Of a stretch of DNA of 64,000 bases, positions 324-59,343 are shown piece after piece. The translations under genes and the position numbers were made by a program. Under the pieces are notes generated by a model. It had not been told where the DNA came from and ran no database searches. It worked only from the letters and a program-made list of their open reading frames with translations. Within the stretch, counting starts at the first letter, position 1. Every line of letters begins with the position of its first letter. Source of the DNA: an uncultured Candidatus Saccharibacteria bacterium (lineage in GTDB: Bacteria > Patescibacteriota > Saccharimonadia > CAILAD01 > JADZBC01); assembly GCA_964413715.1 (NCBI GenBank), contig CAYPSN010000001.1, positions 135,573 to 199,572 of the forward strand, given 5' to 3'.

Positions 324-388
324 GTCTAGGTTCAATGTCCACCGATTCTCGTGTGGGCACGAGCCCGCACCTACCCGGGGGAGGCCCC

Positions 389-718
389 ATGTACGAAAAA
401 CTGCTCGCTTCCTGGATCGTGCTTTGCGCGATACTCGGAGGTATCACCTGGAACTTTTACACGAAGTTCCAAGAAGCGAACCGTCTCTACGGGGAGCAAT
501 TCGACGCCACATCTCTTGAGCAGGTCTCTCATGCGATGGACAGAACCATGTTGGCATGTCTGTTGTTCAGCGGGGTTCTCGCTGTCGGAGCGTGCGCTTT
601 CATCGCCCATTACATCGGTTCGGCAAGTGAAGAAGGTTCGGACAGCGCGCAAGATGACGAACCTGACCCAGACACCCCCATGGATGCACCATGGGGCCAT
701 GAGTCGCGAGCGGCCTGA
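389..718 (+). CDS. GC-rich small membrane protein (2 predicted TM helices), ORFan
   Basis: ATG 389 with GGGGGAGG RBS 4 nt upstream; high GC vs flanks; hydrophobic segments; acidic C-terminus; followed by hairpin with TTCG tetraloop. Confidence 0.6.
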   Translation: MYEKLLASWIVLCAILGGITWNFYTKFQEANRLYGEQFDATSLEQVSHAMDRTMLACLLFSGVLAVGACAFIAHYIGSASEEGSDSAQDDEPDPDTPMDAPWGHESRAA

Positions 719-723
719 GGTGC

Positions 724-780
724 GGGCGGGGTGGAGTCTTCGGACTTCACCCCGCCAAACCCGTAATTATCTTTTGACGC
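724..780 (+). terminator. hairpin GGCGGGGTGGAGTC-TTCG-GACTTCACCCCGCC followed by AT-rich tract
   Basis: inverted repeat seen in sequence; T-tract not immediately adjacent so efficiency uncertain. Confidence 0.45.
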
Positions 781-876
781 CACCGTATTGCAGAGTGGTG
801 TTTTTGTTTACCAGTCATCAACAATTGACAGCTCTAAGCATAAGTAGTATGATAAGCGCAACTAAGTAAAACAAAA

Positions 877-1578
877 ATGCCTACTAAAAAATCAATTAAA
901 CCAAAGGGTCGTAAGCGCAAGCGCCAAACCTTCGACAAGCGTCTTGTACTGGCGGCTCTTATTTTAATCGGCCTGCTTGGCTTAGTCGTAGCAGGTCTAG
1001 CACCAGCCAAGACTGCTAAAAGTACCGGCTCACAGACAAAGACAGAACAGCAATCTACTGCATCTTCTACCAAATCCAAACAACCCAAAGCCGCAACGCC
1101 GACTAATAGCTCCGATACACCCAGCAGACCAAGCTCATCATCAAGCTCCCAGAACAAGCAGTCATCAAATAGCGGATCAACTCAGACCAACAACACAGCT
1201 CCCGTCAGCCAGCAGGGCGTTGCAGCTCCTGTATTCACTCCTACAGCTTCGGTTTCAAAAATCTTTGAAGAGATTACTGCCTGTGTACGCGAACGCTACA
1301 TCTTTAGTGGTCAAATTACAGCAAATATGGCCGGCACAGTTAACTGGAACTGGCTTCGTTGGGATGGCGGCACAAGTGGAGTCAGCGGCACGGTCACATT
1401 CGACAGTAATGGCAATACAAATGATGCCATGCCCTCATATGACTTCTGGATCCACCCAAATTATGATGTAAGTGGCTGGGTTGCGCTTCAGCTAACCTGG
1501 TCTGGTGGCAATTACACCACGCCTCACAGTAACTTTACTTATGTCGATGCCGATGTAAACCCAGGCGGCTGCCCTTAG
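877..1578 (+). CDS. membrane-anchored Ser/Thr/Gln-rich secreted protein
   Basis: basic N-terminus then TM helix (LVLAALILIGLLGLVVAGL), long S/T/Q low-complexity linker, C-terminal globular part; backbone-like GC. Confidence 0.6.
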   Translation: MPTKKSIKPKGRKRKRQTFDKRLVLAALILIGLLGLVVAGLAPAKTAKSTGSQTKTEQQSTASSTKSKQPKAATPTNSSDTPSRPSSSSSSQNKQSSNSGSTQTNNTAPVSQQGVAAPVFTPTASVSKIFEEITACVRERYIFSGQITANMAGTVNWNWLRWDGGTSGVSGTVTFDSNGNTNDAMPSYDFWIHPNYDVSGWVALQLTWSGGNYTTPHSNFTYVDADVNPGGCP

Positions 1579-1662
1579 ACTTTAGCAGTTTTGATACTAG
1601 TACGACGCTTTACGCCGGCGCAATTATTTACAAGAATTCACAACTTTCGTTATACTAAACAC

Positions 1663-3856: not shown

Positions 3857-4419
3857 GGGATGTTGCGAGTGTCTATGCTGCGTGAGTACGCTTCGAATAT
3901 CTCGTTTGCCTCCTTTCGAACCAAGCGCTCGGTATCACGCAACCGACGCTTGCTTACGACAGTGTGAACAATGTCGATCAAGATGCAGACTAGGGCAGCT
4001 ACAAAAATGGCGACCGTAACGACGACGTTCTCGCTCCTCGCCGATACTCTCAGCCAGCCTACCGCTACGCAGACCAGCCAAGACGTCCAGCAGGTGATCT
4101 TCACCCACAAAATTCGCTTTTCAGAACGGACGTACTGAGCAAGCAAGCGTCGTTGTTTCTGCTCCAGGCTGCCTAATCTGCTTTGCGCCTCTAGCACTGC
4201 CGTGCGTTGCTGCTGAACGTGCCTAACTCTAGCAGCAATTAAGGCATCGTCCTTGCGTGGAGCTTCTTCCAGCAGGTAGGTATCGAGATCACTCAAGATA
4301 CTGTCTGCCAGATTGCGCGCATTTCTGGTATTGTCGACTTCTTCGGCAAGCTGAAACTCCAGATCGATGTGCTGCCGAACACGACGAACACTTGGAAGCC
4401 AGCCCAAAATTCGCTTCAT
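3853..4419 (-). CDS. hypothetical protein with C-terminal TM segments
   Basis: ATG 4419 with GGGGGCAGC upstream; about 52% GC. Confidence 0.55.
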   Translation of the reverse strand: MKRILGWLPSVRRVRQHIDLEFQLAEEVDNTRNARNLADSILSDLDTYLLEEAPRKDDALIAARVRHVQQQRTAVLEAQSRLGSLEQKQRRLLAQYVRSEKRILWVKITCWTSWLVCVAVGWLRVSARSENVVVTVAIFVAALVCILIDIVHTVVSKRRLRDTERLVRKEANEIFEAYSRSIDTRNIP

Positions 4420-4487
4420 GCTGCCCCCAGGGCACTCGTAGATACGAAGTGAGCAAACTATATACTATTAATGCCAAAAATACAATA

Positions 4488-4982
4488 CTAAGCGCGACGG
4501 CGGGGTATAAATCGAGGTGTATTTAACTTATAGCGCGCGTAGCGTGAGCCGAACAGGGCTTCGAGCATGGCTTCTTCGCGCTGAGATTTTATCCATAGCA
4601 CCACAACAAGGCTGGCAAAGATCAACGCTCGGGCAATGCTTACTCGTATCAGTAATGTGCCAAGTGCCCATAGGATTATTCCGCTATATACTGGGTGGCG
4701 GACTCGCTTGTATAAGCCGCTGGTCGTGAGCTGGGCATTCTTTACGGGTTCGGCGAATATCGAAAGGGAATACTTGCGCAGTTGCCAGAGCGCTCGGGCA
4801 GCAATGTAGACACCACCAAGTCGCATGAGGTTGGCAAAGAGTATATGTAGCCCGCCCTCGCGTCGGCCAGGGAAGTACAAAACTGCAATCATCAAGCCAA
4901 GCTGAAGTGCAACCAAGATAATGCTGATAGTTTTTGGCTTTGGACTTACTGCATGCCGCCCGCTGCGTCTGCGCCGTTTCAT
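4488..4982 (-). CDS. isoprenylcysteine carboxyl methyltransferase (ICMT/PEMT) family membrane methyltransferase
   Basis: multi-TM protein with the family-typical RHPxY...ILWALG segment (VRHPVYSGIILWALG) and C-terminal acidic motif; -10 TATACT (4994..4989) only 6 nt before ATG (leaderless). Confidence 0.75.
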   Translation of the reverse strand: MKRRRRSGRHAVSPKPKTISIILVALQLGLMIAVLYFPGRREGGLHILFANLMRLGGVYIAARALWQLRKYSLSIFAEPVKNAQLTTSGLYKRVRHPVYSGIILWALGTLLIRVSIARALIFASLVVVLWIKSQREEAMLEALFGSRYARYKLNTPRFIPRRRA

Positions 4983-5043
4983 AGCCCAAGTATACCGCTT
5001 GTGCTTAATAAAATCGAGTAAATTATTTCAGGTACGAAAAGAG

Positions 5044-5087
5044 CCCCGGAGGGGAGTACAGGACTCTTCCGGGGCTCACGTGCGTAG
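5044..5087 (-). terminator. terminator of the AGAGCCCCG repeat family (GAGCCCCGG...CCGGGGCTC + TCTTTTCGTA on minus strand)
   Basis: hairpin plus U-tract read on the minus strand. Confidence 0.7.
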
Positions 5088-5099
5088 CCCTTGGTGGTC

Positions 5100-5480
5100 T
5101 CAGCCGAAGTACCAGCTGAAGCCGGCACCCATGATCATGCCTGCCATCAGACAGAGCATGGCTGGCAGGGCGATGGCAGCACGGATCTCGTTCTGCACGA
5201 GGTACGCCGATGGCTGCACCCAGTAGTTGGCGTACTTGGCATTCACCTTGCGGCGAGCGCGCAACCAGCCGAACAGGGCACCGATGTAGCCGCCGATCAA
5301 GGCACCACCGACCGCCCAGAGGAACGGAGTGGTGTTCTCCTGCCCGCCCGACGAACGGGTGGTGTAGAGGAACTTCAGCACCAGCCCCGGATCCATGAAG
5401 CGGATGTAGGTCATCACCGCGATGAGGCCGATGATCAGGCCGATGCCGACCTTGTACAGCACATCCTTCACGGCCGTCAC
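5100..5480 (-). CDS. GC-rich integral membrane protein (3 TM), ORFan
   Basis: GTG start overlaps the stop of the upstream small ORF (GTGA); high GC; hydrophobic. Confidence 0.55.
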   Translation of the reverse strand: MTAVKDVLYKVGIGLIIGLIAVMTYIRFMDPGLVLKFLYTTRSSGGQENTTPFLWAVGGALIGGYIGALFGWLRARRKVNAKYANYWVQPSAYLVQNEIRAAIALPAMLCLMAGMIMGAGFSWYFG

Positions 5481-5587
5481 TTGAGACCACTCAGCGCCCA
5501 GTACAGGACAGCCGAGGTTCCCACGGTGAACAGCGCCGTGAGGACGTTCTTCTGCAGCTCGGTGAGCTGCTTCTTTGCCTTGGCCAC
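5477..5587 (-). CDS. small membrane protein (36 aa) MAKAKKQLTELQKNVLTALFTVGTSAVLYWALSGLK
   Basis: AAGGAGG RBS 4 nt before GTG start; translationally coupled to downstream gene; not in the ORF track (under 60 aa). Confidence 0.45.
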   Translation of the reverse strand: MAKAKKQLTELQKNVLTALFTVGTSAVLYWALSGLK

Positions 5588-5624
5588 AGGGGCCTCCTTG
5601 ATGTAGGGAACTACGAACGTATGC

Positions 5625-5653
5625 ATATTACCATATTACTTATGCTTTGTCAA
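5625..5653 (-). promoter_or_regulatory. sigma70-like promoter TTGACA-17-TAATAT (minus strand) for the 5587..5100 operon
   Basis: read directly; shares the motif TTGACAAA...TATGGTAWTATG with the promoter at 295..323. Confidence 0.5.
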
Positions 5654-5871
5654 TAATATCCTCTCTGCTGCGGCGCAGAAAACATTGCGTTTTTAGACTT
5701 TCGTTCTTTTGAACTCATCAGCATAGAAACACATCTATGGAGTCTCCCGAGGGAGCCCACAATGAGCGCGCTTTTTGTTGCGCGCCCACCATGAGCGTCT
5801 CCTCAGGTGCCTGATTGTACAGGACTTTTTGGACGGATTAGCCGCCCTCTTCGCCTCTTGGGCTTGGGATG

Positions 5872-7605
5872 TCAGCGCTTGCCGAGGATGTGCAGCTCGA
5901 TCGTCGGCCTGATCTTGTTGTCGATCAGAGTGCGGTAGGTGTCCAGCTCGGCGTCCGTTGGGAAGTGCGCCAGCAGGGTGAGCAGCTCGATGGCCAACCA
6001 CTCCTGCAGGTGCATGATCCAGCGGTCGTTTCGAGCCGTGTGCCTGCCGTTGGTCTCGTCGAGCTTGACCCAGTCGGGGTGCCTGATGTTGAGCACCAGG
6101 GTTCCCGTGCTGGACTCGAACTCCCACAGGTGGGCGTTGCCAGCAAGCTCGTCGTAGCGGAACGACAGACCCTGGGAGCTTGCGCTCACAGAGCCCTTCT
6201 TGGTTCCACCCGACCCACCGGGATGCGGCTTGGTTGGGCGTTCGCCCTCACCGCTACCGCCGCCGGGCTTGCGCCCGCCGCTCGTGCCGTTGCCGCCACG
6301 AGTACCTGGCTCGTCATCGCCCGAGGTCTCACCCTCGGCCTTCTCGCTACCTCCGGGGTCCGGAGATGGTGCTCCGAAGCGCTTCCAGTCGGCGTCGGGG
6401 AATTGCTCGCTCAGTCGCTTGAGGCTCTCGTTGGCGAGGTCCTCGTAGCGGGAGCGATCCTGATCTTCCCGTTCCTCCTCGTAGAGCGCCTGCCCGACTT
6501 CCTCGTACCAGGTGCTCAGCACCAAGTACAAGCCGTGCAGGGGATCGTTGTACTTGAAGCTCTCCCGATCATCACGCAGGGTGATGTTCTCACATCGGAT
6601 GTAGCCCTCGAAGTACCCCGAGCAGAGCACGCTGGCAGCGTCGCTGACGAATTCCCAGAACTTGCCGGAGCGAGCCTGGTTGGCAAACGCCGTCATCGTC
6701 ACACCGAAGTCACCAACCTGGCGCATGACCTGCACCTTGCCCTCCCGCCTGCCGCGCTGTTGCGGCGCACGAAAGAGGGTGATGGTGACCTTGCCGGCGA
6801 TCGGGTCGGTGTACTCGACAACGTCGAGCGGATCTCCCTGGAACGACTGAGGTTCGATGTCACAAACCTCCTTGCTGCCGTTCGAGATCAGGGCGATGCG
6901 CACCTCGACACCCTTGCGCTGCATGGCGATGCCGAAGTTCTGACGGATCTCCGACACGAGCACTTCCAGGTCGATACGACTGACATGCCGGTCCTTGGTC
7001 AGGCCGTTCATCTTGATCATGGTCTGGTAGCGAACGCCGAAACGACCGCTCAGTTCACTGCGGAACTGCTGACCAGGATCCGGAAGCTTGTGGATCGACT
7101 TCCACGGGATGTGGAGCGTCTCGTGCTGAACTCGCACCTCTTCTTCTCGGAAGGTCCACACGTGGCCCTTCTTCGCACCACGTGCGATCGAAGCGAAGGT
7201 GTAGGTCTTGCACTTGTCGATTGGAGCCACGAGCCCCAAGCCGAACTCGCCCAGCTTGTCGGCATCCTTGATGGAGTTACCGATGTTGAGCAGAGCCTCG
7301 TTGAAGCCTGCCATCGTGGTGCCCTTGCCGTTGTCGAGCACGATCACCACTCGCTTGTCGAGATCGATACCGACGAAGATCAGGCTGGCGCCTTGATCGA
7401 TGCCGTTCTGAACCATCTCCTTGAGCGCTGCTCGCAGGGTGGGGTACCGATCTGCGTAGTACATGATGGCATTGCCTTGGTGGACACCGGCCGGGGAAGA
7501 CCCCGAACCGGCCTGGACAGCCTCAGCGGGTTCGCCGCTGGGGTCTTCTGTGGGTTCCTCAGCGGGATCGCCGCTGGGGTCATCTGTGGACTCAGCCACG
7601 GTCAC
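5872..7605 (-). CDS. GHKL-superfamily ATPase (HATPase_c_3; MORC/MutL-like ATP-binding fold) with acidic repeat N-terminus, Gly-rich linker and C-terminal domain
   Basis: N-box EMVQNGIDQ (ExxxNxxD), G1 box VLDNGKGTTMAGF (DxGxG), G2 box GEFGLGL present in order; 4-bp start/stop overlap with upstream gene; high GC. Confidence 0.75.
   Translation of the reverse strand: MTVAESTDDPSGDPAEEPTEDPSGEPAEAVQAGSGSSPAGVHQGNAIMYYADRYPTLRAALKEMVQNGIDQGASLIFVGIDLDKRVVIVLDNGKGTTMAGFNEALLNIGNSIKDADKLGEFGLGLVAPIDKCKTYTFASIARGAKKGHVWTFREEEVRVQHETLHIPWKSIHKLPDPGQQFRSELSGRFGVRYQTMIKMNGLTKDRHVSRIDLEVLVSEIRQNFGIAMQRKGVEVRIALISNGSKEVCDIEPQSFQGDPLDVVEYTDPIAGKVTITLFRAPQQRGRREGKVQVMRQVGDFGVTMTAFANQARSGKFWEFVSDAASVLCSGYFEGYIRCENITLRDDRESFKYNDPLHGLYLVLSTWYEEVGQALYEEEREDQDRSRYEDLANESLKRLSEQFPDADWKRFGAPSPDPGGSEKAEGETSGDDEPGTRGGNGTSGGRKPGGGSGEGERPTKPHPGGSGGTKKGSVSASSQGLSFRYDELAGNAHLWEFESSTGTLVLNIRHPDWVKLDETNGRHTARNDRWIMHLQEWLAIELLTLLAHFPTDAELDTYRTLIDNKIRPTIELHILGKR
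7523..7594 (-). repeat. tandem 36-bp direct repeat inside the 5' end of the GHKL ATPase gene (encodes acidic DPSGDPAEEPTE/DPSGEPAEAVQ repeats)
   Basis: cagcgggttcgccgctggggtcttctgtgggttcct / cagcgggatcgccgctggggtcatctgtggactcag. Confidence 0.8.
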
Positions 7606-8318
7606 CTTCCTTCTCGGTGTTGTGCACGAGCACGCTCGGAGTTGAGCGCGTTCAGGACTTGGGAAAGGTTGAACAAGCTGTTGGCCAGCTCGAACAACTC
7701 TTCGCCCGCCAGCTCACGCAGGCGGGAGCGCTGGGCTGGAGTCCAAGATTCCAGTGCCAGCAAAGCAAGGGGGGATACCCCTTTCACCATCGCTGCCAGT
7801 ACGGGCACCAGCACGTCGAATGCTGGCGCTTCCGCCAACACCTCTGGGGTTGCCTCTGGAAGCGGGGGAAGAGCACTTGGACTGAACGCACGCAGCTTGT
7901 CCTGCAGTCCGCTCTTGGCGTACTGCAAGCTTTCTCCGTACATCTCCTCCAGGCCCTCGACGCCCACAGCAGGCTGCATGGGCTCACGCCCACGCAGGAT
8001 CTGCAGCACGTCTTGGTTGTTCTTGACCCCGCTCAGCTGCTTGGCCTCATCGATCGTGATGACCGAGTAGGCGTACAGCTCGGCGAGGTACTGGTTGAAC
8101 TGCGGAATCCGAAGCTCGGGGATCTCATACCCGGCAGCCAGCACGAAGTGCCAGAGCCGAATCTCGAGGGTTCCCTGAGCCGGATTGCTGTTGGCTGTCC
8201 AGCGTTCCACGGAAGACCGCGCAGCCCCCACGAAATCACAGACGGGCTGTGTTCCATGATGGGTTACGAAGTCCGCCAGGGACGGCTGCAGCCACCGAAA
8301 TGGCTTGTGAACCTGCAT
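7602..8318 (-). CDS. hypothetical protein (238 aa), upstream partner of the GHKL ATPase
   Basis: ATG 8318 with AAGGAGCC RBS; longer track ORF start at 8378 lies inside promoter/operator sequence, so shorter start preferred; high GC. Confidence 0.6.
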   Translation of the reverse strand: MQVHKPFRWLQPSLADFVTHHGTQPVCDFVGAARSSVERWTANSNPAQGTLEIRLWHFVLAAGYEIPELRIPQFNQYLAELYAYSVITIDEAKQLSGVKNNQDVLQILRGREPMQPAVGVEGLEEMYGESLQYAKSGLQDKLRAFSPSALPPLPEATPEVLAEAPAFDVLVPVLAAMVKGVSPLALLALESWTPAQRSRLRELAGEELFELANSLFNLSQVLNALNSERARAQHREGR

Positions 8319-8387
8319 GGCTCCTTCTTGGGGGTTGATGGGTGGGTGGATTAGCGAACTAATCATCCCTTTTTTCAAAGGGCGATC

Positions 8388-8441
8388 GTCCGTAAACGGA
8401 CGTCTGTATTATTCTATCATCATATCTGTTTTTGTCAATCA
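8388..8441 (-). promoter_or_regulatory. promoter TTGACA(8441..8436)-16-TAGAAT(8418..8413) with perfect palindrome CGTCCGTAAACGGACG (8388..8403) at about +1, candidate operator
   Basis: read directly from sequence. Confidence 0.5.
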
Positions 8442-8663
8442 TTTTTTACGTTTATTATTGTTAACAAACGTAAATAGTTTAAAGATAGGCCGTAAGTGAT
8501 TTTACTTATATTAATTCGTCATGTGTCGTTGACAATTATGTAGTGCTTATTAGCAAGAATGACATTGCCCACCAACTCTCTCAAGAACCTACAGAATGAG
8601 CAGGGATTGCACCGCAGGAGTATAATATAAGTGTAAGGAGAGATACTCTCCACAGGAGGTTCT

Positions 8664-9176
8664 ATGGCTACCATATCATCTAACCTGCCGCTACTCGACA
8701 AGAGCACATCGACAACAGATTGCTGCCCCATCTTCCGGCCGAAAGACTGGGATGGCAAGGTCTTTACCTTCAAAGACAAGCCGTTTATTAAAGACCATAC
8801 GGTGAGTTTTTTGCACATTCCGCTCAATATGAGCAAGGTAATGGCGCGACTTTCTAAAACAGCTGAAGATGCTCATGCGAGTGCCGAGGACTTCATCCTC
8901 TTAAGCCAAGACACCTCTCCCTGGCATGCCGACCACTATTATGCGGTGTCGAAATCAATCAGTGGCGCCGAAAACGTCACACTAACTGGCACGTATTACG
9001 CCAAAGTATACGAAGGCGAGTACAAAGACATGACTAAGTGGTATAAGGACTTGATTGCTGCCGTAGAGCAGCGTGGCGATGAGCTCCAAGAAATCTACTT
9101 TTATTACACCACCTGCCCTAAGTGCACCAAGGTGTATGGCAAAAACTATGTGCTGGGCTTTGCAAAAATAGGGTAG
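8664..9176 (+). CDS. hypothetical protein with C-terminal CPKC motif, intermediate GC
   Basis: ATG with AGGAGG RBS; no family assigned. Confidence 0.6.
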   Translation: MATISSNLPLLDKSTSTTDCCPIFRPKDWDGKVFTFKDKPFIKDHTVSFLHIPLNMSKVMARLSKTAEDAHASAEDFILLSQDTSPWHADHYYAVSKSISGAENVTLTGTYYAKVYEGEYKDMTKWYKDLIAAVEQRGDELQEIYFYYTTCPKCTKVYGKNYVLGFAKIG

Positions 9177-9193
9177 CCAGCGACATACTGAAT

Positions 9194-9236
9194 ACGAAAA
9201 GAGCCCCGACTGGAGTCGTGGACTCTAATCGGGGCT
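9194..9236. terminator. bidirectional terminator of the AGAGCCCCG family
   Basis: GCCCCGA...TCGGGGC stem flanked by A/T tracts; between convergent genes. Confidence 0.7.
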
Positions 9237-9258
9237 TGTAGGGCCGTTGGTGCGGTGG

Positions 9259-9756
9259 CTAGACCGCGCGCAGGTGGGGAGCGGAGAGTTCCTCGGCCAA
9301 CTGCTGCAGAGCCTGCTGGTCCGCTTGCAGCTGAGCGAGCTGCTTGCGGCAGGTGGCGGCCTTATCTCTGTGGCTGGTGTAGCCCTGCGCCAGCATGTCC
9401 TCGCTGTACTGCAGCCGCTGCTGCACCGCCTTGATGGTCTCGCTGAGGATGGCCATGCGCTGCAGCAAGCAGGCCGCCACAGCCTGCCGGCTGTACTCGC
9501 CGAGCTTGGCGATCAGCTCCGGCTTGCCCTGGACCTGATCCAGGTAAGCGACGGCGGCGGCCACCTCCGCGTAGTGCTGGGTCGCCTTGCCGATCCGCTC
9601 CAGCGCTCGGTCGACGTCACTGTCGAACCGCGCCATCCAGGTGGTGTGGCGCTGCTCATGCAGCACCGCCAGGACGGCGATGAGCAGCAGCAGGAGGATC
9701 ACGGCGATCCCACCCAACAGCCACTCGGTCTTGGTCAGCTCTTCGAAGATGCCCAT
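9259..9756 (-). CDS. GC-rich membrane-anchored coiled-coil protein
   Basis: start at MGIFEEL (ATG 9756) with GAAAGGCGG RBS; N-terminal TM helix then Ala/Gln/Leu-rich helices. Confidence 0.55.
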   Translation of the reverse strand: MGIFEELTKTEWLLGGIAVILLLLLIAVLAVLHEQRHTTWMARFDSDVDRALERIGKATQHYAEVAAAVAYLDQVQGKPELIAKLGEYSRQAVAACLLQRMAILSETIKAVQQRLQYSEDMLAQGYTSHRDKAATCRKQLAQLQADQQALQQLAEELSAPHLRAV

Positions 9757-9803
9757 CGGGCACCACCGCCTTTCATTGTTTGTAGGGTACAACGGTCTGG
9801 TGA

Positions 9804-9832
9804 ATTATATCTTACATTTATTTATTTGTCAA
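9804..9832 (-). promoter_or_regulatory. consensus sigma70 promoter TTGACA-17-TATAAT (minus strand)
   Basis: exact consensus hexamers with 17-bp spacer. Confidence 0.6.
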
Positions 9833-9916
9833 TTGTATTTGACATATGTAAATCGGATTATCTTGCATGCATAATGGGCATTTTGCAAGTCATCTTATCC
9901 ATTTTGTTAAACGATA

Positions 9917-9945
9917 TTGACATATTCACTGCTATTGTATATAAT
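9917..9945 (+). promoter_or_regulatory. consensus sigma70 promoter TTGACA-17-TATAAT (plus strand)
   Basis: exact consensus hexamers with 17-bp spacer, then AAGGAGGGGG RBS and ATG 9982. Confidence 0.6.
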
Positions 9946-9981
9946 GCAAAGACTTCGCTCTAGACCCAAGGAGGGGGAGCC

Positions 9982-10338
9982 ATGACCGAAGACCGAATCT
10001 TCGAACTCGAGGTGGTCCGCGCCACCATTCCCGGACAGGCGCCCGGGCTCGTCATCTACCTGGTGGAGAGCCACGGCCTGTTGGCGGTGCCGCGCGAGAT
10101 CTACCGATCGAGCAACACCGGCCAGGCCATCGTGCTGCAGCATGGTACCGTCCCCAGCTTCGCAGCATGGGAGCCCGGTACCTTCACCGAGATCCGTGGC
10201 TACGAGGCCCTGCGCGAGCAGATCATGCGCGTGCTGGACCCGCCAGAAGATCTGATCAAGGATGCGAACACGCTGGCCGACACGATGGTCACCCATGTTC
10301 GTTCTGAGATCGAGCCCATGCCCGGGCAGTACGCGTAG
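9982..10338 (+). CDS. GC-rich hypothetical protein (118 aa), ORFan
   Basis: strong RBS; high GC; terminator downstream. Confidence 0.55.
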   Translation: MTEDRIFELEVVRATIPGQAPGLVIYLVESHGLLAVPREIYRSSNTGQAIVLQHGTVPSFAAWEPGTFTEIRGYEALREQIMRVLDPPEDLIKDANTLADTMVTHVRSEIEPMPGQYA

Positions 10339-10365
10339 CGAAGATCCGCCCCTGCATTGGGGCAC

Positions 10366-10403
10366 CCAGCCTCCCGGCTTACCCCGGGAGGCTTTCGCTT
10401 TCT
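10366..10403 (+). terminator. terminator AGCCTCCCGG-cttacc-CCGGGAGGCT + TTTCGCTTTC
   Basis: 10-bp perfect stem plus U-tract. Confidence 0.65.
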
Positions 10404-10427
10404 CAAGCAAAGGCAAAAAACAATACA

Positions 10428-10456
10428 TTGACTTTAGTGCTATATTCTTGTATTAT
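10428..10456 (+). promoter_or_regulatory. sigma70-like promoter TTGACT-17-TATTAT
   Basis: read directly. Confidence 0.55.
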
Positions 10457-10517
10457 ATGCCTCTGCAGATCAACTGTTTCGTACCTTAACCATTCCGTTC
10501 CGACCCAAAGGGGAAAG

Positions 10518-11264
10518 ATGTTCACTCGCTACACCAACTCACACCCAGCTGCGAAGGTGGTGATCTTCGCAGCAAGCCTCGGCCTCATGTACTGGGCCTT
10601 CTACCTCATCTACGGCAACCACACCTCAGCGATCCTGCTGGTGGGCAGCGTGGCCGTGCACGAGCTCGGGCACCTGGCGGCCTACCTGTACTACGGCCTG
10701 CGTGGTGGCATCATCTTCCTGCCGCCAATTGGCGCCGTGATGATCCCCAGCGATCAAGAAGCTGCCAAGCGCATGCAGGAGTGGCGCAAGGGCATCGTGG
10801 CGTTCGCCGGCCCGGCCGTGAACATCGGCCTGGCTGCCGTCGGCCTGGTCATGATCGTGTTCATGCCCGAGTGGCGCAACTTCGGCCTGATGATGACGTC
10901 GCTGAATGGCACCCTGGCGGCCTTCAACCTTCCCCCCTTCAGCTTGCTGGACGGGGGAAACGTCGCCAAGGCGTTGTTCAACAGCGCTGATGAGGCGGGT
11001 GACCGTCGCATCGTCTGGTACCTGACCCGGTCCATGATCGGTTGCTTCGTGGCCATGGCGCTGTTCGGCACGGTGTCGCTCATGCCGGTGTTGTTCATCT
11101 GGCGGCTGCACACTGCGGCCAACGACGACGACCCCTTGGCCTGGCGAGAGCCGACGGCCATGAAGAAGCGTGAGCTGCACCAGATGACGCGGCTCTACGC
11201 CGCAGCTGCCGTGGTGACGTTCTTCATCGCCGCGGTGTTCCGGTACTGGAACGACTACCGCTAG
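10518..11264 (+). CDS. peptidase M50 (site-2 protease-like) family membrane metalloprotease
   Basis: HELGH zinc-binding motif in a TM helix (VAVHELGHLAAYL), multi-TM architecture; ATG 10518 with AAAGGGGAAAG RBS; high GC. Confidence 0.7.
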   Translation: MFTRYTNSHPAAKVVIFAASLGLMYWAFYLIYGNHTSAILLVGSVAVHELGHLAAYLYYGLRGGIIFLPPIGAVMIPSDQEAAKRMQEWRKGIVAFAGPAVNIGLAAVGLVMIVFMPEWRNFGLMMTSLNGTLAAFNLPPFSLLDGGNVAKALFNSADEAGDRRIVWYLTRSMIGCFVAMALFGTVSLMPVLFIWRLHTAANDDDPLAWREPTAMKKRELHQMTRLYAAAAVVTFFIAAVFRYWNDYR

Positions 11265-11305
11265 CACGTGCTAGCACGCAGGGCGCGGTGGGCTGAAATA
11301 GGACC

Positions 11306-11349
11306 CACCGGCCTCCCGGCCTTCGGATTACCCGAAGGCTTTTTCTATT
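11306..11349 (+). terminator. terminator GCCTCCCGGCCTTCGG-attacc-CGAAGGC + TTTTTC; related to the 10366..10403 terminator
   Basis: hairpin plus U-tract; shares GCCTCCCGGC...TTACCC with the upstream copy. Confidence 0.65.
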
Positions 11350-11503
11350 ACTTGAATATTCCACCTGGCCATACCTCCTTACATGTCGCAATATTATTTC
11401 CTACAATGGGGTAAATAGAGCTATAGACCAAAGCAGCTGCCAGGTTCAAATAATGCGCGGGTCTTTACCGCGCCTCTGCGTAAACTGACCGGATGCATCA
11501 CAT

Positions 11504-11531
11504 TGACTAAACAGTATTTTTATGCTATTAT
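11504..11531 (+). promoter_or_regulatory. sigma70-like promoter TTGACT-16-TATTAT(TGCG)
   Basis: read directly; -10 context TATTATTGCG identical to the promoter at 19624..19652. Confidence 0.55.
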
Positions 11532-11566
11532 TGCGTTCTCACATTCGTCAACGGAAGGACAGTGAG

Positions 11567-11965
11567 ATGACCGACACGGTCGCATTGGAACCCGGCAAGG
11601 TCGAGGAGATCTTCCTGGACTGCCTGTTCAAGGAAGGCGAGGACACCAGCAACCACGTGCCTGCCGAAGGCATCACCATGATGGTCGGCTTCCACCCGGA
11701 GCGGCTCGAGAGCCACCGTGAGGAGATCAAGGCCCTGCTGGCCGAACTGCCCGACGAGTTCAAGAGCTCGGAGAGGGGTGGTGGCGGTGGCTGGTCGTTC
11801 CTCAACGCCTGCATGGATCGCCACGGCCAGCAGTGGACCGGTCTGCACAAGATCATGGAGCAGCTGGTGACCCTCGGCGTCGCTCTCGGCCTGGTGGACT
11901 ACACCCTGCCACGCGACATGTGGGGCGTCATGCCCGGAGGAGTGCCGTACTTCGTCGTCAAGTGA
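11567..11965 (+). CDS. GC-rich hypothetical protein (132 aa) with internal Gly5 stretch
   Basis: ATG 11567 with GGAAGGACAGTGAG upstream. Confidence 0.55.
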   Translation: MTDTVALEPGKVEEIFLDCLFKEGEDTSNHVPAEGITMMVGFHPERLESHREEIKALLAELPDEFKSSERGGGGGWSFLNACMDRHGQQWTGLHKIMEQLVTLGVALGLVDYTLPRDMWGVMPGGVPYFVVK

Positions 11966-12054
11966 CGACATCAGCCCGCATGGGCCGTCTGCCGGCGCGT
12001 CAGTCCGGCTCTTCCCAAGTTCATAATTTGAAAATTGTGAGTTTAGGAAGGTAT

Positions 12055-12105
12055 ATGAAAAGAGCCCCGAGAAGAGCTTGGGGCTCTTTTCGGGGCTGAG
12101 GGTAT
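12055..12105. terminator. bidirectional terminator, AGAGCCCCG family (two nested GAGCCCC units)
   Basis: AAAAGAGCCCCGAGAAGAGCTTGGGGCTCTTTTCGGGGCT. Confidence 0.7.
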
Positions 12106-12117
12106 GGCCAACTGGCA

Positions 12118-12600
12118 CTATCGGCGAAAGGACTGGGACCACTCCGACGCATCCATGGCGTCTTGTACGGCCATGTCGGTCATTTCGCGCTCGATGACCT
12201 CGCGTCGGATCCACGGGACAACCCCGTAGAAGTAGAAGATCAGGAGCAGGACGACCACCGCCCTGACTGCCAATTTGGCGATTCCGGACGCTTGGTAGCC
12301 GGTGTCATTCAAGACCGCCCAAATGCCCCCGAGGCAGATGGAGAGCAGCATGAATACCGCCACACCCATCAACGCCAGGATCGGCATAAGCCAGCACAGT
12401 CGCACTCGGAGCGTCTTGACCTGCTGAAGTCTCTGCTGCAAGCTGCCGATGCGTCGCGTCAGACTCACGGGTCGTTGCGGATACGGAAGCTGAACCCAGA
12501 GCGCCAACAGCTCATCGTGCGATGCCTGATAGCGCTCTTCGGCGTCCTGTAAGCGCATCAACACCGGGAACATTTCCCGGTTGAATTTCGTGTTTTTCAA
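12118..12600 (-). CDS. GC-rich membrane protein (2-3 TM), ORFan
   Basis: TTG start with GGAGGA upstream (alternative ATG 9 codons later). Confidence 0.5.
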   Translation of the reverse strand: MKNTKFNREMFPVLMRLQDAEERYQASHDELLALWVQLPYPQRPVSLTRRIGSLQQRLQQVKTLRVRLCWLMPILALMGVAVFMLLSICLGGIWAVLNDTGYQASGIAKLAVRAVVVLLLIFYFYGVVPWIRREVIEREMTDMAVQDAMDASEWSQSFRR

Positions 12601-12632
12601 CGTTCCTCCAAACGGGATATCACGGTCGTAAC

Positions 12633-12661
12633 ATTCTATAATGTTATAGGCATTATGTCAA
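12633..12661 (-). promoter_or_regulatory. sigma70-like promoter TTGACA-17-TAGAAT (minus strand)
   Basis: same -10 variant (aTAGAAT) as the 8413..8441 promoter. Confidence 0.55.
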
Positions 12662-12687
12662 TATATTACCTTGATATCTTAAGCGCC

Positions 12688-12733
12688 GACGAAAAGAGCC
12701 CCGAGGGGAGCAAGGGGCTCTCTTCGGGGCTCG
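12688..12733 (-). terminator. terminator, AGAGCCCCG family
   Basis: GAGCCCCGAGGGGAGCAAGGGGCTC plus TTTTCG on minus strand. Confidence 0.7.
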
Positions 12734-12749
12734 TTAGCCCTGCGGCGTC

Positions 12750-13109
12750 CTACACGCCAGGGTCAAGGCCGTGAGCGTGGAGCATGTCCGCACTCTCGCG
12801 CAGGAAGCTTTCGCCATCGGGTGAAAGCTGGTACAGGCGTGTGGTCCAGTCTCCCTGAACCAACCGAGGTGACGGCCACACGTAGCCTTCCTCGGCCTGA
12901 CGATTCAAGAGGTTCTGAAGGAAGTACACATCGCACTTGAGGTCGTCTGCCAGGTGTCGAAGCTCCTTGGGGCGACCGACGCGCTTGAGGTGGCAGAGCA
13001 CCACCCAGTAGTTGTTGGCTTCGAACTTCTTGTTAGCACGGATGCGCCACGCCCACACTCCCATGAGGAAGAAGACGAGGCACATCGTTATCTGAATGAG
13101 GAGTATCAC
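12750..13109 (-). CDS. GC-rich small membrane protein, ORFan
   Basis: GTG start at 13109 with GGAGGT upstream. Confidence 0.5.
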   Translation of the reverse strand: MILLIQITMCLVFFLMGVWAWRIRANKKFEANNYWVVLCHLKRVGRPKELRHLADDLKCDVYFLQNLLNRQAEEGYVWPSPRLVQGDWTTRLYQLSPDGESFLRESADMLHAHGLDPGV

Positions 13110-13157
13110 ATGACCTCCGTGGCCACTCGATGTTTGGAAGGGTCTATACGAAGTCGA

Positions 13158-13185
13158 ATTATATACTAAATATAAGATTAGTCAA
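13158..13185 (-). promoter_or_regulatory. sigma70-like promoter TTGACT-16-TATAAT (minus strand)
   Basis: read directly. Confidence 0.55.
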
Positions 13186-13217
13186 TGATTTCTATTGAAG
13201 CAGAGCTACGCTTATGC

Positions 13218-13246
13218 TTGTAAAAGAAGGTTGATGATTAGATAAT
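13218..13246 (+). promoter_or_regulatory. sigma70-like promoter TTGTAA-17-GATAAT
   Basis: read directly. Confidence 0.45.
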
Positions 13247-13285
13247 CACATAGTCCAAAGGCCACAACGAGTACTAGGAGGTAAC

Positions 13286-13468
13286 GTGGCAGTATTGAAG
13301 GAATTTTCGCTTCTGCGAACCGTGTGCGATGCATGTGGCGGCAACTACATGGCCATCGAGTCCACCGACGATCCCACCAAGGTGCAGCTGCTCTGCAGCT
13401 GCCGAGCAGTCCGCCTGATGTCCAGACAGAGCCCGGTGATCCGGCAAGCTCTGGAGGACTCGGAATGA
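13286..13468 (+). CDS. small Cys-rich (zinc-ribbon-like CxxC...CxC) protein, 60 aa
   Basis: GTG start 5 nt after AGGAGG. Confidence 0.5.
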   Translation: MAVLKEFSLLRTVCDACGGNYMAIESTDDPTKVQLLCSCRAVRLMSRQSPVIRQALEDSE

Positions 13469-13866
13469 ACCCCGTGGTTCTGCGCGTACGCTATCGGCCC
13501 ATCGGCATCGCCGAGGCCAAGGCACGTCAGCTGAGCAACGACAATGAAGTCGTACGTAGCGTCATGGCGGCGGTGGCGTTTCGTAGTTTCGGTGACAAGG
13601 TCGATGGGAAGCTCAAGGACCACGTGCGCCTGGAGTTCACTGCGGCCAGCCCGCTGGACTGCAACTGCCCAGCGATGTCGTTCGAGCTGGAGTGGACTGA
13701 TCCGGACATGACCCAGCGCAAGCTCGATGCGCGTTGCGATTCGCTCGCAGCCGCCCTGGTAGACCTCATGTCTGGACCGATCGACATGCTGGTAGTAGTG
13801 CGGGTAGGCAGCATGACGTCGCAGCTGGAGTCTTTCAAGCGACAGGCTACATCAGCCGCGCAATAA
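13465..13866 (+). CDS. GC-rich hypothetical protein (133 aa), ATGA-coupled to the upstream small protein
   Basis: ATG 13465 with GGAGGA 6 nt upstream, overlapping stop of the previous ORF; the track ORF 13324..13866 is in the same frame but starts earlier. Confidence 0.5.
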   Translation: MNPVVLRVRYRPIGIAEAKARQLSNDNEVVRSVMAAVAFRSFGDKVDGKLKDHVRLEFTAASPLDCNCPAMSFELEWTDPDMTQRKLDARCDSLAAALVDLMSGPIDMLVVVRVGSMTSQLESFKRQATSAAQ

Positions 13867-14023
13867 CAAACCACTTTTTGGCAAAGGAGGCCACGTAAAA
13901 GCCCCTTGCTGAAAGGTGGTTTTTACGTTGGTGGAGTTTGGAACTGATGTGAATCACAAAGTCCTAACGCACACATATATGATGTGTAACTTTGCGATTC
14001 CCTGATAGGGTATAATGTAGGTA

Positions 14024-15939: not shown

Positions 15940-16389
15940 GTGGGACTTCTCAGGAAGTACGAGTGCACCACAGGGATCTACGATCCCAGGTTTTACCACA
16001 GGGCGACTGCAGCCATCCGTGCAGAATGCCGAGAGGCTGGGGTGAGGTGCAGCAAACCAGATGCCACCCTTGCTGCGAGGGTCCTGCTGCAAGTGGCATA
16101 CGACGCAGATGCCGAGCCACACTTCTGCGGTGGTGGGCGTGCGAGGATGCTCAGCGACGAACACTCGAAGCGCCTGGAACGGATCTTCGCTGTGATCATG
16201 AGGCCGAACATCACCAACCCGATTGCAGACTCCGCACATGGACTCTGCAACAGCATGCTTGGTGGCAATGAAGGCTTCAAGCGAACCGTGAGACACGGCA
16301 GGACCCACCTGCAGATCACAGGCTCCGAAGTGATCGGAGTGGACCCTTCTCTCCAGAACGCGTCACCTGTGCTTCTGCAGCTGAAGTAG
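15940..16389 (+). CDS. GC-rich hypothetical protein (149 aa), ORFan
   Basis: GTG start with AAAGGGGA RBS; terminator downstream. Confidence 0.5.
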   Translation: MGLLRKYECTTGIYDPRFYHRATAAIRAECREAGVRCSKPDATLAARVLLQVAYDADAEPHFCGGGRARMLSDEHSKRLERIFAVIMRPNITNPIADSAHGLCNSMLGGNEGFKRTVRHGRTHLQITGSEVIGVDPSLQNASPVLLQLK

Positions 16390-16401
16390 GTGGTACGACC
16401 A

Positions 16402-16450
16402 GCCACCCCAAGAATGATGAACCGTCACTCCTTGGGGTGGCGTTTCATTT
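16402..16450 (+). terminator. terminator GCCACCCCAAG...CTTGGGGTGGC + GTTTCATTTG
   Basis: 11-bp perfect stem. Confidence 0.7.
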
Positions 16451-16453
16451 GAC

Positions 16454-16482
16454 TTGAAAAATAACAGCCTACCTGGTATGAT
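16454..16482 (+). promoter_or_regulatory. sigma70-like promoter TTGAAA-17-TATGAT
   Basis: read directly. Confidence 0.5.
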
Positions 16483-16552
16483 TCTAAGCCGTACTTGTGC
16501 GATTTGTACCCATCCCGCTGCGTTAGCGCGCAGCACATAGCGAAAGTGAGCC

Positions 16553-16915
16553 ATGACCACATACACGAGTGAGTCGATTGCAGAGGGTCTGGAGTTCTTC
16601 TGCGAGGGGGCGCAGATGGCGTTCCTGACAGAGCCAGACGACACCAACGCCAAGCGGTTCCTGAAGGGCTACATCACCGGCCAGGAAGATGCCGCACTGC
16701 TGCATCTCACGGGCAAGCTGTTGGCTACGGGCATGCCCATCCGTCTCGGCACCGGCGTGTTCAACCACACTGCGCGCGAGACGCTGGAGATGCTGCTCAA
16801 CGCCTACCTGTGGCCCTACTTCTGCGAAGACGATCTGGTCGAGCAGAAGATCCGTGCCAGCAGCCACTGCGGCCAGCTCCCTGCGCCCAAGCGCCGCGCC
16901 CAAGCCGCCGCGTAG
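16553..16915 (+). CDS. GC-rich hypothetical protein (120 aa), ORFan
   Basis: ATG with GAAAGTGAG upstream; hairpin plus T-tract at 16945..16972. Confidence 0.5.
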   Translation: MTTYTSESIAEGLEFFCEGAQMAFLTEPDDTNAKRFLKGYITGQEDAALLHLTGKLLATGMPIRLGTGVFNHTARETLEMLLNAYLWPYFCEDDLVEQKIRASSHCGQLPAPKRRAQAAA

Positions 16916-17027
16916 CACCGAACCACTCCTGCGGGAGGCATTACGCCACTCGAAGGGGTGGTGTTTTGTTTTACTTGCCTTGCATTTTGGCTTTCAAATT
17001 TCTACAATAGAGCCACACATTAACATA

Positions 17028-17189
17028 ACCTAGTATCGAGAGTGCAGTGAGAGATCTAGCTCTATGACCTGCCGGCAACCACTTTGTAAAAGAACGGTGC
17101 CCCTTCTAGCCCTGTGCGGGAAAGATAAGTGATAGACTTAACTCCTTTTTCCTGCCGGTGGCGGGATAGATACGAAAGGAGTTTTTTTT
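17028..17189 (+). promoter_or_regulatory. SAM-I (S-box) riboswitch with expression-platform terminator (CTCCTTTTTCC...GGAAAGGAG + T8) in the metK leader
   Basis: conserved S-box blocks recognisable: GAGAGTGCAGTGAGAGA, TATGACCTGCCGGCAACC, GGTGCC, GAAAGATAAG; directly upstream of metK. Confidence 0.65.
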
Positions 17190-18161
17190 ATGGCCAAACT
17201 AACTAACCTGCGAACCGCCGAAAGTGTCAGCCCCAAGCACCCCGACAAATTGTGCGATCAAGTCAGCGATGCAATATTGGATGCATACTTAGCCAAAGAC
17301 CCTACGTCCCGAGTAGCAATTGAAGCACTTGGTGGGCACGGTCAGCTGGTGGTGATGGGTGAGGTTACCAGCACGGCGACGATAGACATTGCCCCAATTG
17401 TGCAGCGCATTGTGGGCGACATTGCACTCAGTACCATCATCGTGGAGCAAAGCCCCGAGATTGCCCAAGGAGTCGATACTGGCGGAGCTGGCGACCAGGG
17501 CATAATGATTGGCTACGCTTGCAGCGAAACACCCGAAGCCTTACCGCTCGAAGTAGTGTTAAGCCGTCAGCTCAATCAGTATTTGTTTGAGCGCTGGCCG
17601 TTCGATGGCAAAACACAAATAACGTTGCGAGGAGACCAGATTGTTGCCGTGGTGGCGAGTTTTCAAAACGCAGCTACCGACGAATTGAAACAGGCAATTG
17701 CCGAGTGGCTGCAAAGCAAGCCCACGAGCAAACAACTTGCCATTCACGCCAATCCGGCGGGCGAATGGCGCCAGGGTGGATTTAAGGCTGATACGGGCCT
17801 GACTGGTCGCAAGTTGGTGGTGGATAATTACGGCCCGCGCATTCCAATTGGCGGTGGTTGCTTTAGCGGCAAAGACGCCAGTAAAGTCGATAGATCGGCC
17901 GCTTACATGGCACGTAAGATTGCGCTGGATTATCTTCGTAAGCGTGAAGCAAGTGAAGTATTTACTAGGCTTGCGTATGCAATAGGCTACGATCAGCCAC
18001 TTGAGGCTAGTATCATAATTGACGGCAAACAAGAAGCCGTGGTTGGCTATGACTTGTCGCCACGGGGCATCATTAAGCAGCTTGACTTAACCAAGCCACA
18101 GTTTGAAGCCACGGCGCGCTATGGGCATTTTGGCCATGGTGAATTTAGTTGGGAGAAGTAA
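17190..18161 (+). CDS. metK: S-adenosylmethionine synthetase (short form, 323 aa)
   Basis: SESVSPKHPDKLCDQVSDAILDAYL and GAGDQGIMIGYA signatures. Confidence 0.85.
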   Translation: MAKLTNLRTAESVSPKHPDKLCDQVSDAILDAYLAKDPTSRVAIEALGGHGQLVVMGEVTSTATIDIAPIVQRIVGDIALSTIIVEQSPEIAQGVDTGGAGDQGIMIGYACSETPEALPLEVVLSRQLNQYLFERWPFDGKTQITLRGDQIVAVVASFQNAATDELKQAIAEWLQSKPTSKQLAIHANPAGEWRQGGFKADTGLTGRKLVVDNYGPRIPIGGGCFSGKDASKVDRSAAYMARKIALDYLRKREASEVFTRLAYAIGYDQPLEASIIIDGKQEAVVGYDLSPRGIIKQLDLTKPQFEATARYGHFGHGEFSWEK

Positions 18162-25410: not shown

Positions 25411-25502
25411 CCATAATAATCAAAGAGATGAGTTGATGTATAATACATCTTGACCTAGAGGCGGAGGAGTCCGCACCTTCACACATAGAGGAGGTGGACA
25501 GA

Positions 25503-58615: not shown

Positions 58616-58679
58616 GCATAGTAATTATTGACTATTCATCATTTTTATGCTAATGTAGCATAATTCGCCATCGCGGACC

Positions 58680-59267: not shown

Positions 59268-59286
59268 ACTGCCAGGGCCCTACACC

Positions 59287-59337
59287 AAGAGCCCCGAATG
59301 AGAGCCTTAACGCTCCATCCGGGGCTCTCATTCGTTT
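59287..59337. terminator. bidirectional terminator, AGAGCCCCG family, between convergent gene ends
   Basis: CGAATGAGAGCC...GGCTCTCATTCG plus GAGCCCCG...CGGGGCTC. Confidence 0.7.
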
Positions 59338-59343
59338 AGTCAG

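Follow-up and report, generated by a model that had tools for sequence, protein, structure and literature searches.

The 64-kb stretch of DNA analysed here (the window) is a segment of the chromosome of a Candidatus Saccharibacteria bacterium with genes such as topA, dprA, thyX, metK and those for a penicillin-binding protein and a class II tRNA synthetase, and it contains five copies, designated T1 to T5 (Table 1), of a GC-rich hairpin element of about 46 nt. Judging from sequence, structure and position, these copies are probably members of one homologous family of Rho-independent (intrinsic) terminators, which would cap cassettes composed of a promoter, an open reading frame (ORF) and a terminator. 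Dispersed repeats of terminator type are already a known kind of element, and what is new is a terminator module found throughout a lineage. No description of such an element was found in the literature searched, and an Rfam search over the elements gave no family match at gathering or E-value thresholds.

A preliminary description of this DNA had listed a dispersed family of five hairpin repeats, and the family is real. The 14-mer core CGAAAAGAGCCCCG has six matches in the window at up to two mismatches, while 0.64 are expected and none of 100 shuffled sequences reaches six; within the window the core is confined to the elements and never found in coding DNA. A covariance model was built from 15 family members, and it gives 54-67 bits (E 1e-10 to 1e-13) for the four tight copies, all on the minus strand. 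Read on the plus strand, these four fit the pattern ACGAAAAGAGCCCCG-N21-CGGGGCT, the 21-nt spacing being identical in all of them. T1 begins 10 nt to the left of the start first assigned to it (5044-5087). The fifth copy, listed at 59287-59337, belongs to the family as a divergent subtype with a longer stem, the tail CUCUCAUUCGUUU (also given as CTCTCATTCGTTT) and no A-tract, and has in common with the tight copies only AGAGCCCCGA...CCGGGGCTCT plus TTCGT.

In the sense of the upstream gene the element reads RAGCCCCGR, a 3-nt internal loop, GAGY, an apical loop of 3-6 nt, RCUC, a second 3-nt internal loop, YCGGGGCU and CUUUUCGU. This gives an outer stem AGCCCCGR/YCGGGGCU and an inner stem GAGY/RCUC, separated by a 3x3 internal loop which is paired in some copies, and the tail CUCUUUUCGU. 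Predicted folds range from -24.6 to -29.6 kcal/mol (z -4.2 to -6.5), or about -25 to -28 kcal/mol when read in gene sense, and none of 200 shuffled sequences is equally stable. T1 has GG/CC at the stem base and the inner stem GAGU/ACUC, T2 has the inner stem GAGUC/GACUC, and T3 starts with ATG instead of ACG. Directly 3' of the stem, in gene sense, the tail is present in T1 to T4 and in all 11 copies of other genomes. On the opposite strand the hairpins of all copies still fold and a U-run is found there only for T3. Since the U-tract otherwise follows the hairpin only when this is read in gene sense, the proposal that the repeats are mostly usable in both orientations fails except for T3. The two sides of this copy are occupied by GAAAAGAG and CTCTTTTC, and GGGGCTCTTTTC is repeated in its inner arm, by which the stem acquires a flanking A-tract and U-tract in both directions; it is the sole copy of bidirectional design and sits between the convergent genes 11567-11965 (+) and 12118-12573 (-).

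The structure is supported by covariation. Pair 20-27 of the inner stem is CG in seven sequences and UA in six, and 86.5% of the cells pair, compared with 24-52% after a shift of the partners by 1-3 columns. The inner stem lies outside every search pattern and is nevertheless retained. Further comparison was possible with a relative, GCA_964496815.1 (relative R; loci L048, L096 and L097), whose DNA identity to the window is 75-95%; the closest relatives among the fetched loci are metagenome-assembled genomes (MAGs) titled Candidatus Saccharibacteria. The orthologue of T2 in R, found via protein homology, has AGGCCCGG/CCGGGCCU in place of the window's AGCCCCGA/UCGGGGCU, so that its outer stem differs by two compensatory double changes while the tail is unchanged. 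The hairpin of the T4 orthologue in R is identical.

All 16 copies (five in the window and 11 in other genomes) start 10-23 nt past the stop codon of an ORF on the same strand, which agrees with the earlier view of the repeats as terminator-like and tied to cassettes. T1 begins 18 nt past the stop of a gene for a 126-aa membrane protein, and T2 and T5 each lie 17 nt past the stop of the preceding gene, that before T5 being placed between core genes. By G+C content at third codon positions (GC3), the genes in the window form two classes, i.e. core genes with 0.45-0.59 and about 17 cassette genes with 0.69-0.91, thyX included. Every element is located behind a gene with GC3 of at least 0.77, which corresponds to 5 of the 17 high-GC3 genes and 0 of the 34 or so low-GC3 genes (hypergeometric p about 0.003 by our own estimate). 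Across genomes of 41-60% GC the element always follows high-GC3 genes (GC3 0.58-0.89). High-GC3 stretches of the window are found, for example, at 5100-8321, 9259-13866, 15940-16915, 25494-27131 and 58731-59267.

For two high-GC3 families, the homologues in other Saccharibacteria, with genomes of 41-55% GC, likewise have GC3 of 0.8-0.92, and therefore the high GC3 is not that of a recent import awaiting amelioration. GC-biased gene conversion and transfer among Saccharibacteria differing in GC are both possible causes of the two classes. Import from actinobacterial hosts was rejected, though weakly because most hits have no taxonomy: the two cassette families searched have few homologues, and the named homologues of cassette proteins are all called Saccharibacteria or Microsaccharimonas.

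Promoter-like sites are frequent in this region (38 in 20 kb, where 11.2 are expected), and every cassette has its own near-consensus promoter. Both strands are used, and several promoters are perfect TTGACA-17-TATAAT sequences, such as that of the cassette gene before T2 at 9832-9804. The promoter of the next minus-strand cassette (12661-12633) is found within 30 nt after T4. The plus-strand promoter regions of three cassettes (294-326, 11502-11534 and 58627-58659) are 70-79% identical over 33 nt (ATTGACT...TTTTTATGCTAWTRT).

The ORFs upstream of the 16 copies belong to at least 11 unrelated families. T2-type elements follow family A genes (window and locus L004) and also family B genes (loci L014, L057, L071 and L088), and family A genes carry T2-type (window, L004), T3-like (L046) or T1-like (R) elements. 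In L004 and L014, which are from the same MAG, the elements are 93% identical behind unrelated genes. Window T2 is 91% identical to the L004 copy, the upstream family A proteins being only 48% identical. With its orthologue in R, the closer relative, it shares only 79% identity, and there the protein identity is 68%. T3 is 89-91% identical to two copies in R (L048 6852-6905 and 7705-7758). Window T5 and its counterpart in L102 are identical at 62 of 65 nt (95.4%), the flanking collinear core genes at 63-77% (69% over 8.8 kb). No significant similarity exists between the ORFs preceding the two copies (BLASTP E 0.62); a T5-type copy is also present in L110. Since the subtypes cut across gene families, we infer that duplication, gene conversion or recombination among cassettes has propagated the family or homogenised its copies.

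Copies beyond the window, which the preliminary description had expected, are present in other Saccharibacteria. An exact-pattern scan of one genome per species for 185,579 species gave 75 loci, about 10 of which are in MAGs of Saccharibacteria/Patescibacteria. All of these have the AC prefix, a spacing of 21 +/-1 nt and the inner stem in common, and in the other 65 or so, from Streptomyces, Clostridia and other groups, the hairpin is an ordinary one whose loops are unrelated and whose spacing is 19-23 nt. The element with the covarying inner stem is present in at least nine other Saccharibacteria/Patescibacteria genomes. In a metagenome collection that does not include the window's own contig, two family members were found among 12 matches, while the viral contigs of IMG/VR contained none, their single match being an unrelated GC hairpin. 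About 116 kb of other Saccharibacteria DNA, fetched via protein homology, had no copy of T1-T4 type and only the T5-type copies in L102 and L110, and therefore the family is low-copy and not present in every member of the phylum. In four 20-kb stretches from other Saccharibacteria, a single T5-type copy was the only one.

The elements mark cassette edges. In comparison with R, homology stops at 9193, i.e. at the outer edge of T2 (9193/9194), and resumes at the 3' end of thyX (27220). It also stops at 12691, the outer edge of T4, and resumes at 11363, and therefore two cassettes sharing T3 are missing from R. Beside a conserved gene for an ICMT-family methyltransferase, homology spans the A-tract and the first arm of T1 and ends at 5048, past which R differs in element subtype and in ORF, its ORF encoding a putative lipoprotein of 241 aa and being flanked by two elements that are 95% identical (58 nt including flanks) and 850 bp apart. 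Directly past T5, nothing is inserted in the window, a CofD-family gene follows in L102, and an HTS-family gene (Pfam PF04204) follows in L110. The suggestion that cassette polymorphisms break at the repeats therefore holds for three breaks against R (inside T1 and at the outer edges of T2 and T4). It does not hold for a strain-level breakpoint at about 1642, where there is a promoter-like site and no element. JGI contig Ga0172278_1384 is 99.9% identical to the window from position 1642 rightwards, and in it (L106 8700-9169) a different stretch of about 470 bp replaces window 376-1641, including a 233-aa gene at 877-1578; window 1-375 matches the contig at 83.5% identity. Two metagenome scaffolds in ENA match the window at 100% identity. 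No site differing by the element alone was found in the comparisons with R, L102 and L110, and no target-site duplication is visible at any copy. It is plausible that the element itself serves as a recombination site or anchor causing the exchanges.

As a mechanism, we propose that the nascent RNA would fold into the two-tier GC hairpin (about -25 kcal/mol) and that the U-rich tail would then free the polymerase. The module would cap single-gene units, each having its own near-consensus sigma-70-type promoter and an ORF with GC3 far above that of the core genome, and T3 would be a symmetrical version serving two convergent genes. Because the promoter of the following cassette often starts 20-50 nt past the element, the element would insulate adjoining units. 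The cassette promoters, to judge from their sequences, may also form a family. The module would spread among cassettes by the routes mentioned above without being tied to any single gene, and boundaries of rearrangement and exchange would fall at the element because it is among the best-conserved DNA of a fast-changing region. Saccharibacteria are naturally competent (PMC10633639), and therefore exchange through short conserved flanks is plausible.

Several observations weigh against this interpretation. We infer actual termination from the anatomy of the elements. The invariance of the outer stem in our alignment A1 is largely an effect of ascertainment, because the search pattern required the outer stem. 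The U-tract is short (CUCUUUUCGU, four consecutive U) and is interrupted in T5. The sequence is conserved more strongly than a hairpin would require: over 65 nt the identity of T5 is 95% against 69% in the flanking genes, the conserved stretch includes 17 nt upstream of the stem, and CGU after the U-run is kept in 13 of 15 copies. Such conservation hints at an additional sequence-specific function or at recent exchange. Furthermore, the family is not universal among cassettes. Other high-GC3 cassettes end in unrelated hairpins (10368, 11318, 16423, 16943 and 18210); among seven family B homologues sampled regardless of the element, four use unrelated hairpins and three the T5 type; and one operon has a hammerhead ribozyme candidate in its 3' untranslated region (UTR) in place of the element.

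Since some pairs are conserved beyond structural requirement, the main rival is a sequence-specific function, by which the hairpin would be mainly a recognition element in the 3' UTR or in the DNA, to which, for instance, some RNA-binding protein, RNase or regulator co-controlling the GC-rich cassettes would bind, and termination would be secondary. The excess identity of T5 over its background, unpaired 5' flank included, the near-invariance of the tail between species, and the greater similarity of T2 to the distant L004 copy than to the orthologue in the closer R are consistent with such a role. Against this, the orthologue in R changes its sequence yet keeps its structure by compensation, which is typical of purely structural selection, the internal and apical loops vary freely, and the invariance of the tail is partly owed to the search pattern; no candidate binding protein was identified. 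We regard this explanation as unlikely, and terminators as the better reading. Like intrinsic terminators, the element is a GC-rich stem-loop with a U-rich tract, placed just past a stop codon and co-oriented with the gene, and the symmetrical T3 lies between convergent genes. To our knowledge, the sequences of ordinary intrinsic terminators are not conserved between loci or species, whereas the present element is a recognisable 46-nt two-tier family found behind at least 11 unrelated genes in at least 10 genomes.

The preliminary description had called the repeats REP-type, and a selfish mobile sequence resembling repetitive extragenic palindromic (REP) sequences or miniature inverted-repeat transposable elements, inserted behind genes by a dedicated transposase with termination being incidental, is the second rival. 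REP sequences and bacterial interspersed mosaic elements (BIMEs) of Enterobacteria and Pseudomonas, with their REP-associated tyrosine transposases (RAYTs), are likewise imperfect palindromes dispersed outside genes, and at the 3' ends of genes they can terminate transcription or stabilise transcripts. The occurrence of a dispersed palindromic extragenic repeat at unrelated loci and in unrelated genomes, and the two nearly identical copies flanking one ORF in R, would fit such a mobile sequence. The label nevertheless does not suit the present copies, which are single, always point the same way as the gene before them, follow it at a short and fixed distance, show no clustered or inverted arrangement, and are restricted to high-GC3 accessory genes. 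Their density is low (five copies per 64 kb, about one per 13 kb, and none of T1-T4 type in the DNA sampled elsewhere). The comparisons above revealed no filled and empty sites differing by the element and no target-site duplication, and among about 50 proteins of the window scanned with Pfam there was no RAYT or IS200/IS605-like Y1 transposase and no other transposase, integrase or tyrosine/serine recombinase. A selfish origin is thus improbable.

A site-specific recombination site of attC type, or another belonging to an integron-like gene-capture system, has still less probability. As with attC and the Vibrio cholerae repeats, a conserved imperfect palindrome ends each variable single-gene cassette, content differs among relatives, synteny breaks at the element, and the slot beside the ICMT-family methyltransferase gene holds different ORFs in the window and in R. 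In contrast to attC, no R/L core boxes (R''/L'', L'/R', GTTRRRY/RYYYAAC) are found in or around the copies, the Pfam-scanned proteins of the window include no integrase, the strain-level breakpoint at about 1642 is away from any element, and the cassettes, each with a promoter of its own, are found in either orientation, unlike the promoterless, co-oriented cassettes of integrons.

Uptake sequences of Neisseria and Haemophilus often form terminator hairpins, and known uptake sequences occur about once per kb. A role as DNA uptake sequence (DUS; or uptake signal sequence, USS) in the form of an inverted pair for natural transformation might be considered from the first of these facts, from the conservation of the core between species, from the presence of dprA in the window and from the natural competence of Saccharibacteria (PMC10633639). 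Like DUS pairs and Correia elements of Neisseria, the present elements are lineage-specific inverted repeats doubling as terminators in a naturally competent organism. However, the core is found only in 4-5 elements per 64 kb, a density at least 10-fold lower, and never in coding DNA, its orientation strictly follows the upstream gene, the four 20-kb stretches lack it except for one T5-type copy, and no Correia body of 100-150 bp with TA duplication is seen; we give this role hardly any credence. In sum, within the DNA covered, the high-copy clusters of REP/BIME, the core boxes of attC and the density of DUS are all absent from the element.

Independent terminators that converged on a common GC-rich stem without common descent are equally hard to credit: the outer pattern of 13+7 bases also occurs in the 65 or so unrelated genomes as ordinary hairpins and the outer stem is therefore easy to evolve, yet those matches have unrelated loops and varying spacings, whereas the Saccharibacteria copies share GAGY/RCUC, the 21 +/-1-nt spacing, the AC prefix and subtype-specific loops.

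The cassettes resemble phage morons, which Hendrix and colleagues reportedly described as promoter-ORF-terminator units of deviant GC content, in that each is an autonomous unit of a single gene, equipped with a promoter and a factor-independent terminator and differing in composition from the surrounding genome (cassette GC3 0.77-0.91). Unlike morons, they lie in a bacterial chromosome without surrounding phage genes, their neighbours being metK, thyX, topA and the glycyl-tRNA synthetase gene, and their terminators make up a single sequence family, for which morons are not known. A phage or plasmid origin was rejected: no match was obtained by megablast of window 4000-14000 against phages or, for a cassette protein of 577 aa, by tblastn against phages and plasmids, and the PHROGs matches of window proteins were only generic. 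An anti-phage defence island was rejected as well, PADLOC and NCBIfam giving merely marginal GHKL-ATPase matches.

The preliminary description had proposed a second repeat family at 10366-10403 and 11306-11349 (F2a and F2b in Table 1). Both are real plus-strand hairpins with T-tracts, but their stems are different sequences, and the 10-mer GCCTCCCGGC common to them is not above chance (nine matches in the window at up to one mismatch against 4.1 expected, 3 of 100 shuffles reaching nine). Their homology is therefore unproven, and they were rejected as true repeats. The statement that they flank the M50 protease cassette was borne out, as they bound a block of about 1 kb (10366-11345) with the M50 gene inside that is 95-100% identical to R (L096 553-1550), while the flanks and neighbouring cassettes are 50-84% identical. 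The block begins with the first base of F2a, extends through the T-tract of F2b and is itself a mosaic, and the NCBI contig of R ends inside it (L097). Its near-identity points to a recent exchange or to an assembly chimera of co-occurring strains, the latter because both genomes occur in the same samples. Just upstream of F2a and outside this block, a small hairpin at 10338-10365 is GCCCCTGCATTGGGGC in the window and GCCCTTACGTAGGGC in R, with compensatory changes.

A third look-alike pair, also on the plus strand, is located at 16423-16442 (CGTCACTCCTTGGGGTGGCG then TTTCATTTGACTTG) and 16943-16964 (ACGCCACTCGAAGGGGTGGTGT then TTTGTTTTACTTG), behind the tandem high-GC3 genes 15940-16389 and 16553-16915, and is probably the other related pair of the preliminary description.

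The hammerhead candidate lies about 125 nt past the stop of the GHKL-ATPase gene 5872-7605 and about 40 nt before the promoter of the next cassette. Its catalytic core is intact (CUGAUGAG ... CGAAA), with CUC as cleavage triplet. The motif is also found downstream of a 71%-identical homologue in L109 (11848-11902, 32 bits), and the two differ by compensatory changes (stem I A-U to U-A; pair 15.2-16.2 G-C to A-U). If active, the candidate may cut the operon transcript where other cassettes carry a terminator. No link between hammerheads and Saccharibacteria was found in the literature searched.

Table 1. Coordinates of the elements, the associated cassette ORFs and other RNA features in the 64-kb window
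Feature	Position	Strand	Details
T1	5034-5079	-	53.9 bits, E 1.2e-10; fold -25.1 kcal/mol, z -4.2
T2	9194-9239	-	67.2 bits, E 9e-14; fold -24.9 kcal/mol, z -6.5
T3	12055-12100	both	64.1 bits minus, 31.1 bits plus; folds -24.6 and -29.9 kcal/mol
T4	12689-12734	-	66.6 bits, E 1.2e-13; 13 nt past stop of gene 12750-13085
T5	59273-59337	+	32.7 bits, E 1e-5 (covariance-model match 59285-59340)
Cassette ORF before T1	5100-5480	-	GC3 0.87; promoter 5653-5625, common with small ORF 5477-5626
Cassette ORF before T2	9259-9756	-	GC3 0.91; family A, one transmembrane segment and coiled coil
Cassette ORF before T3	12118-12573	-	GC3 0.78; absent from relative R, as is 11567-11965
Cassette ORF before T4	12750-13085	-	GC3 0.77; promoter 13185-13158
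Cassette ORF before T5	58731-59267	+	GC3 0.85; distant relative of family B; promoter-like site 58627-58659
F2a, simple terminator hairpin	10366-10403	+	AGCCUCCCGG/CCGGGAGGCU and U-rich tail; after gene 9982-10338
F2b, simple terminator hairpin	11306-11349	+	GGCCUUCGG/CCGAAGGCU and UUUUUC; after M50 peptidase gene 10518-11264
Type III hammerhead ribozyme candidate	5693-5747	-	RF00008, 35.7 bits, below gathering score of 48.5; E 5.6e-4, whole window
SAM-I riboswitch (RF00162)	17030-17131	+	52.3 bits, above gathering score; directly upstream of metK (17190-18161)

Saccharibacteria belong to the Candidate Phyla Radiation, have tiny genomes and have become genetically tractable only recently. A portable conserved terminator, together with the matching strong promoters, would provide native parts for expression constructs in these bacteria. 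The element is also usable as a sequence tag for fast-turnover accessory cassettes, which encode mostly membrane proteins and proteins of unknown function and may mediate their interaction with the bacterial host. Beyond the terminator family itself, we tentatively suggest that a pool of GC-rich accessory ORFs may be held between conserved AT-rich promoter and terminator modules, which in these competent epibionts with reduced genomes would act as portable homology patches for swapping, insertion or replacement of cassettes by RecA-type recombination without an integrase. Such a system would be an integrase-free functional analogue of the integron, and the high GC3 could be a by-product of frequent recombination through GC-biased gene conversion. 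If the elements are indeed recombination anchors, they would represent a simple, recombinase-free way of cassette exchange in a competent lineage, and this might explain the two classes of GC3.

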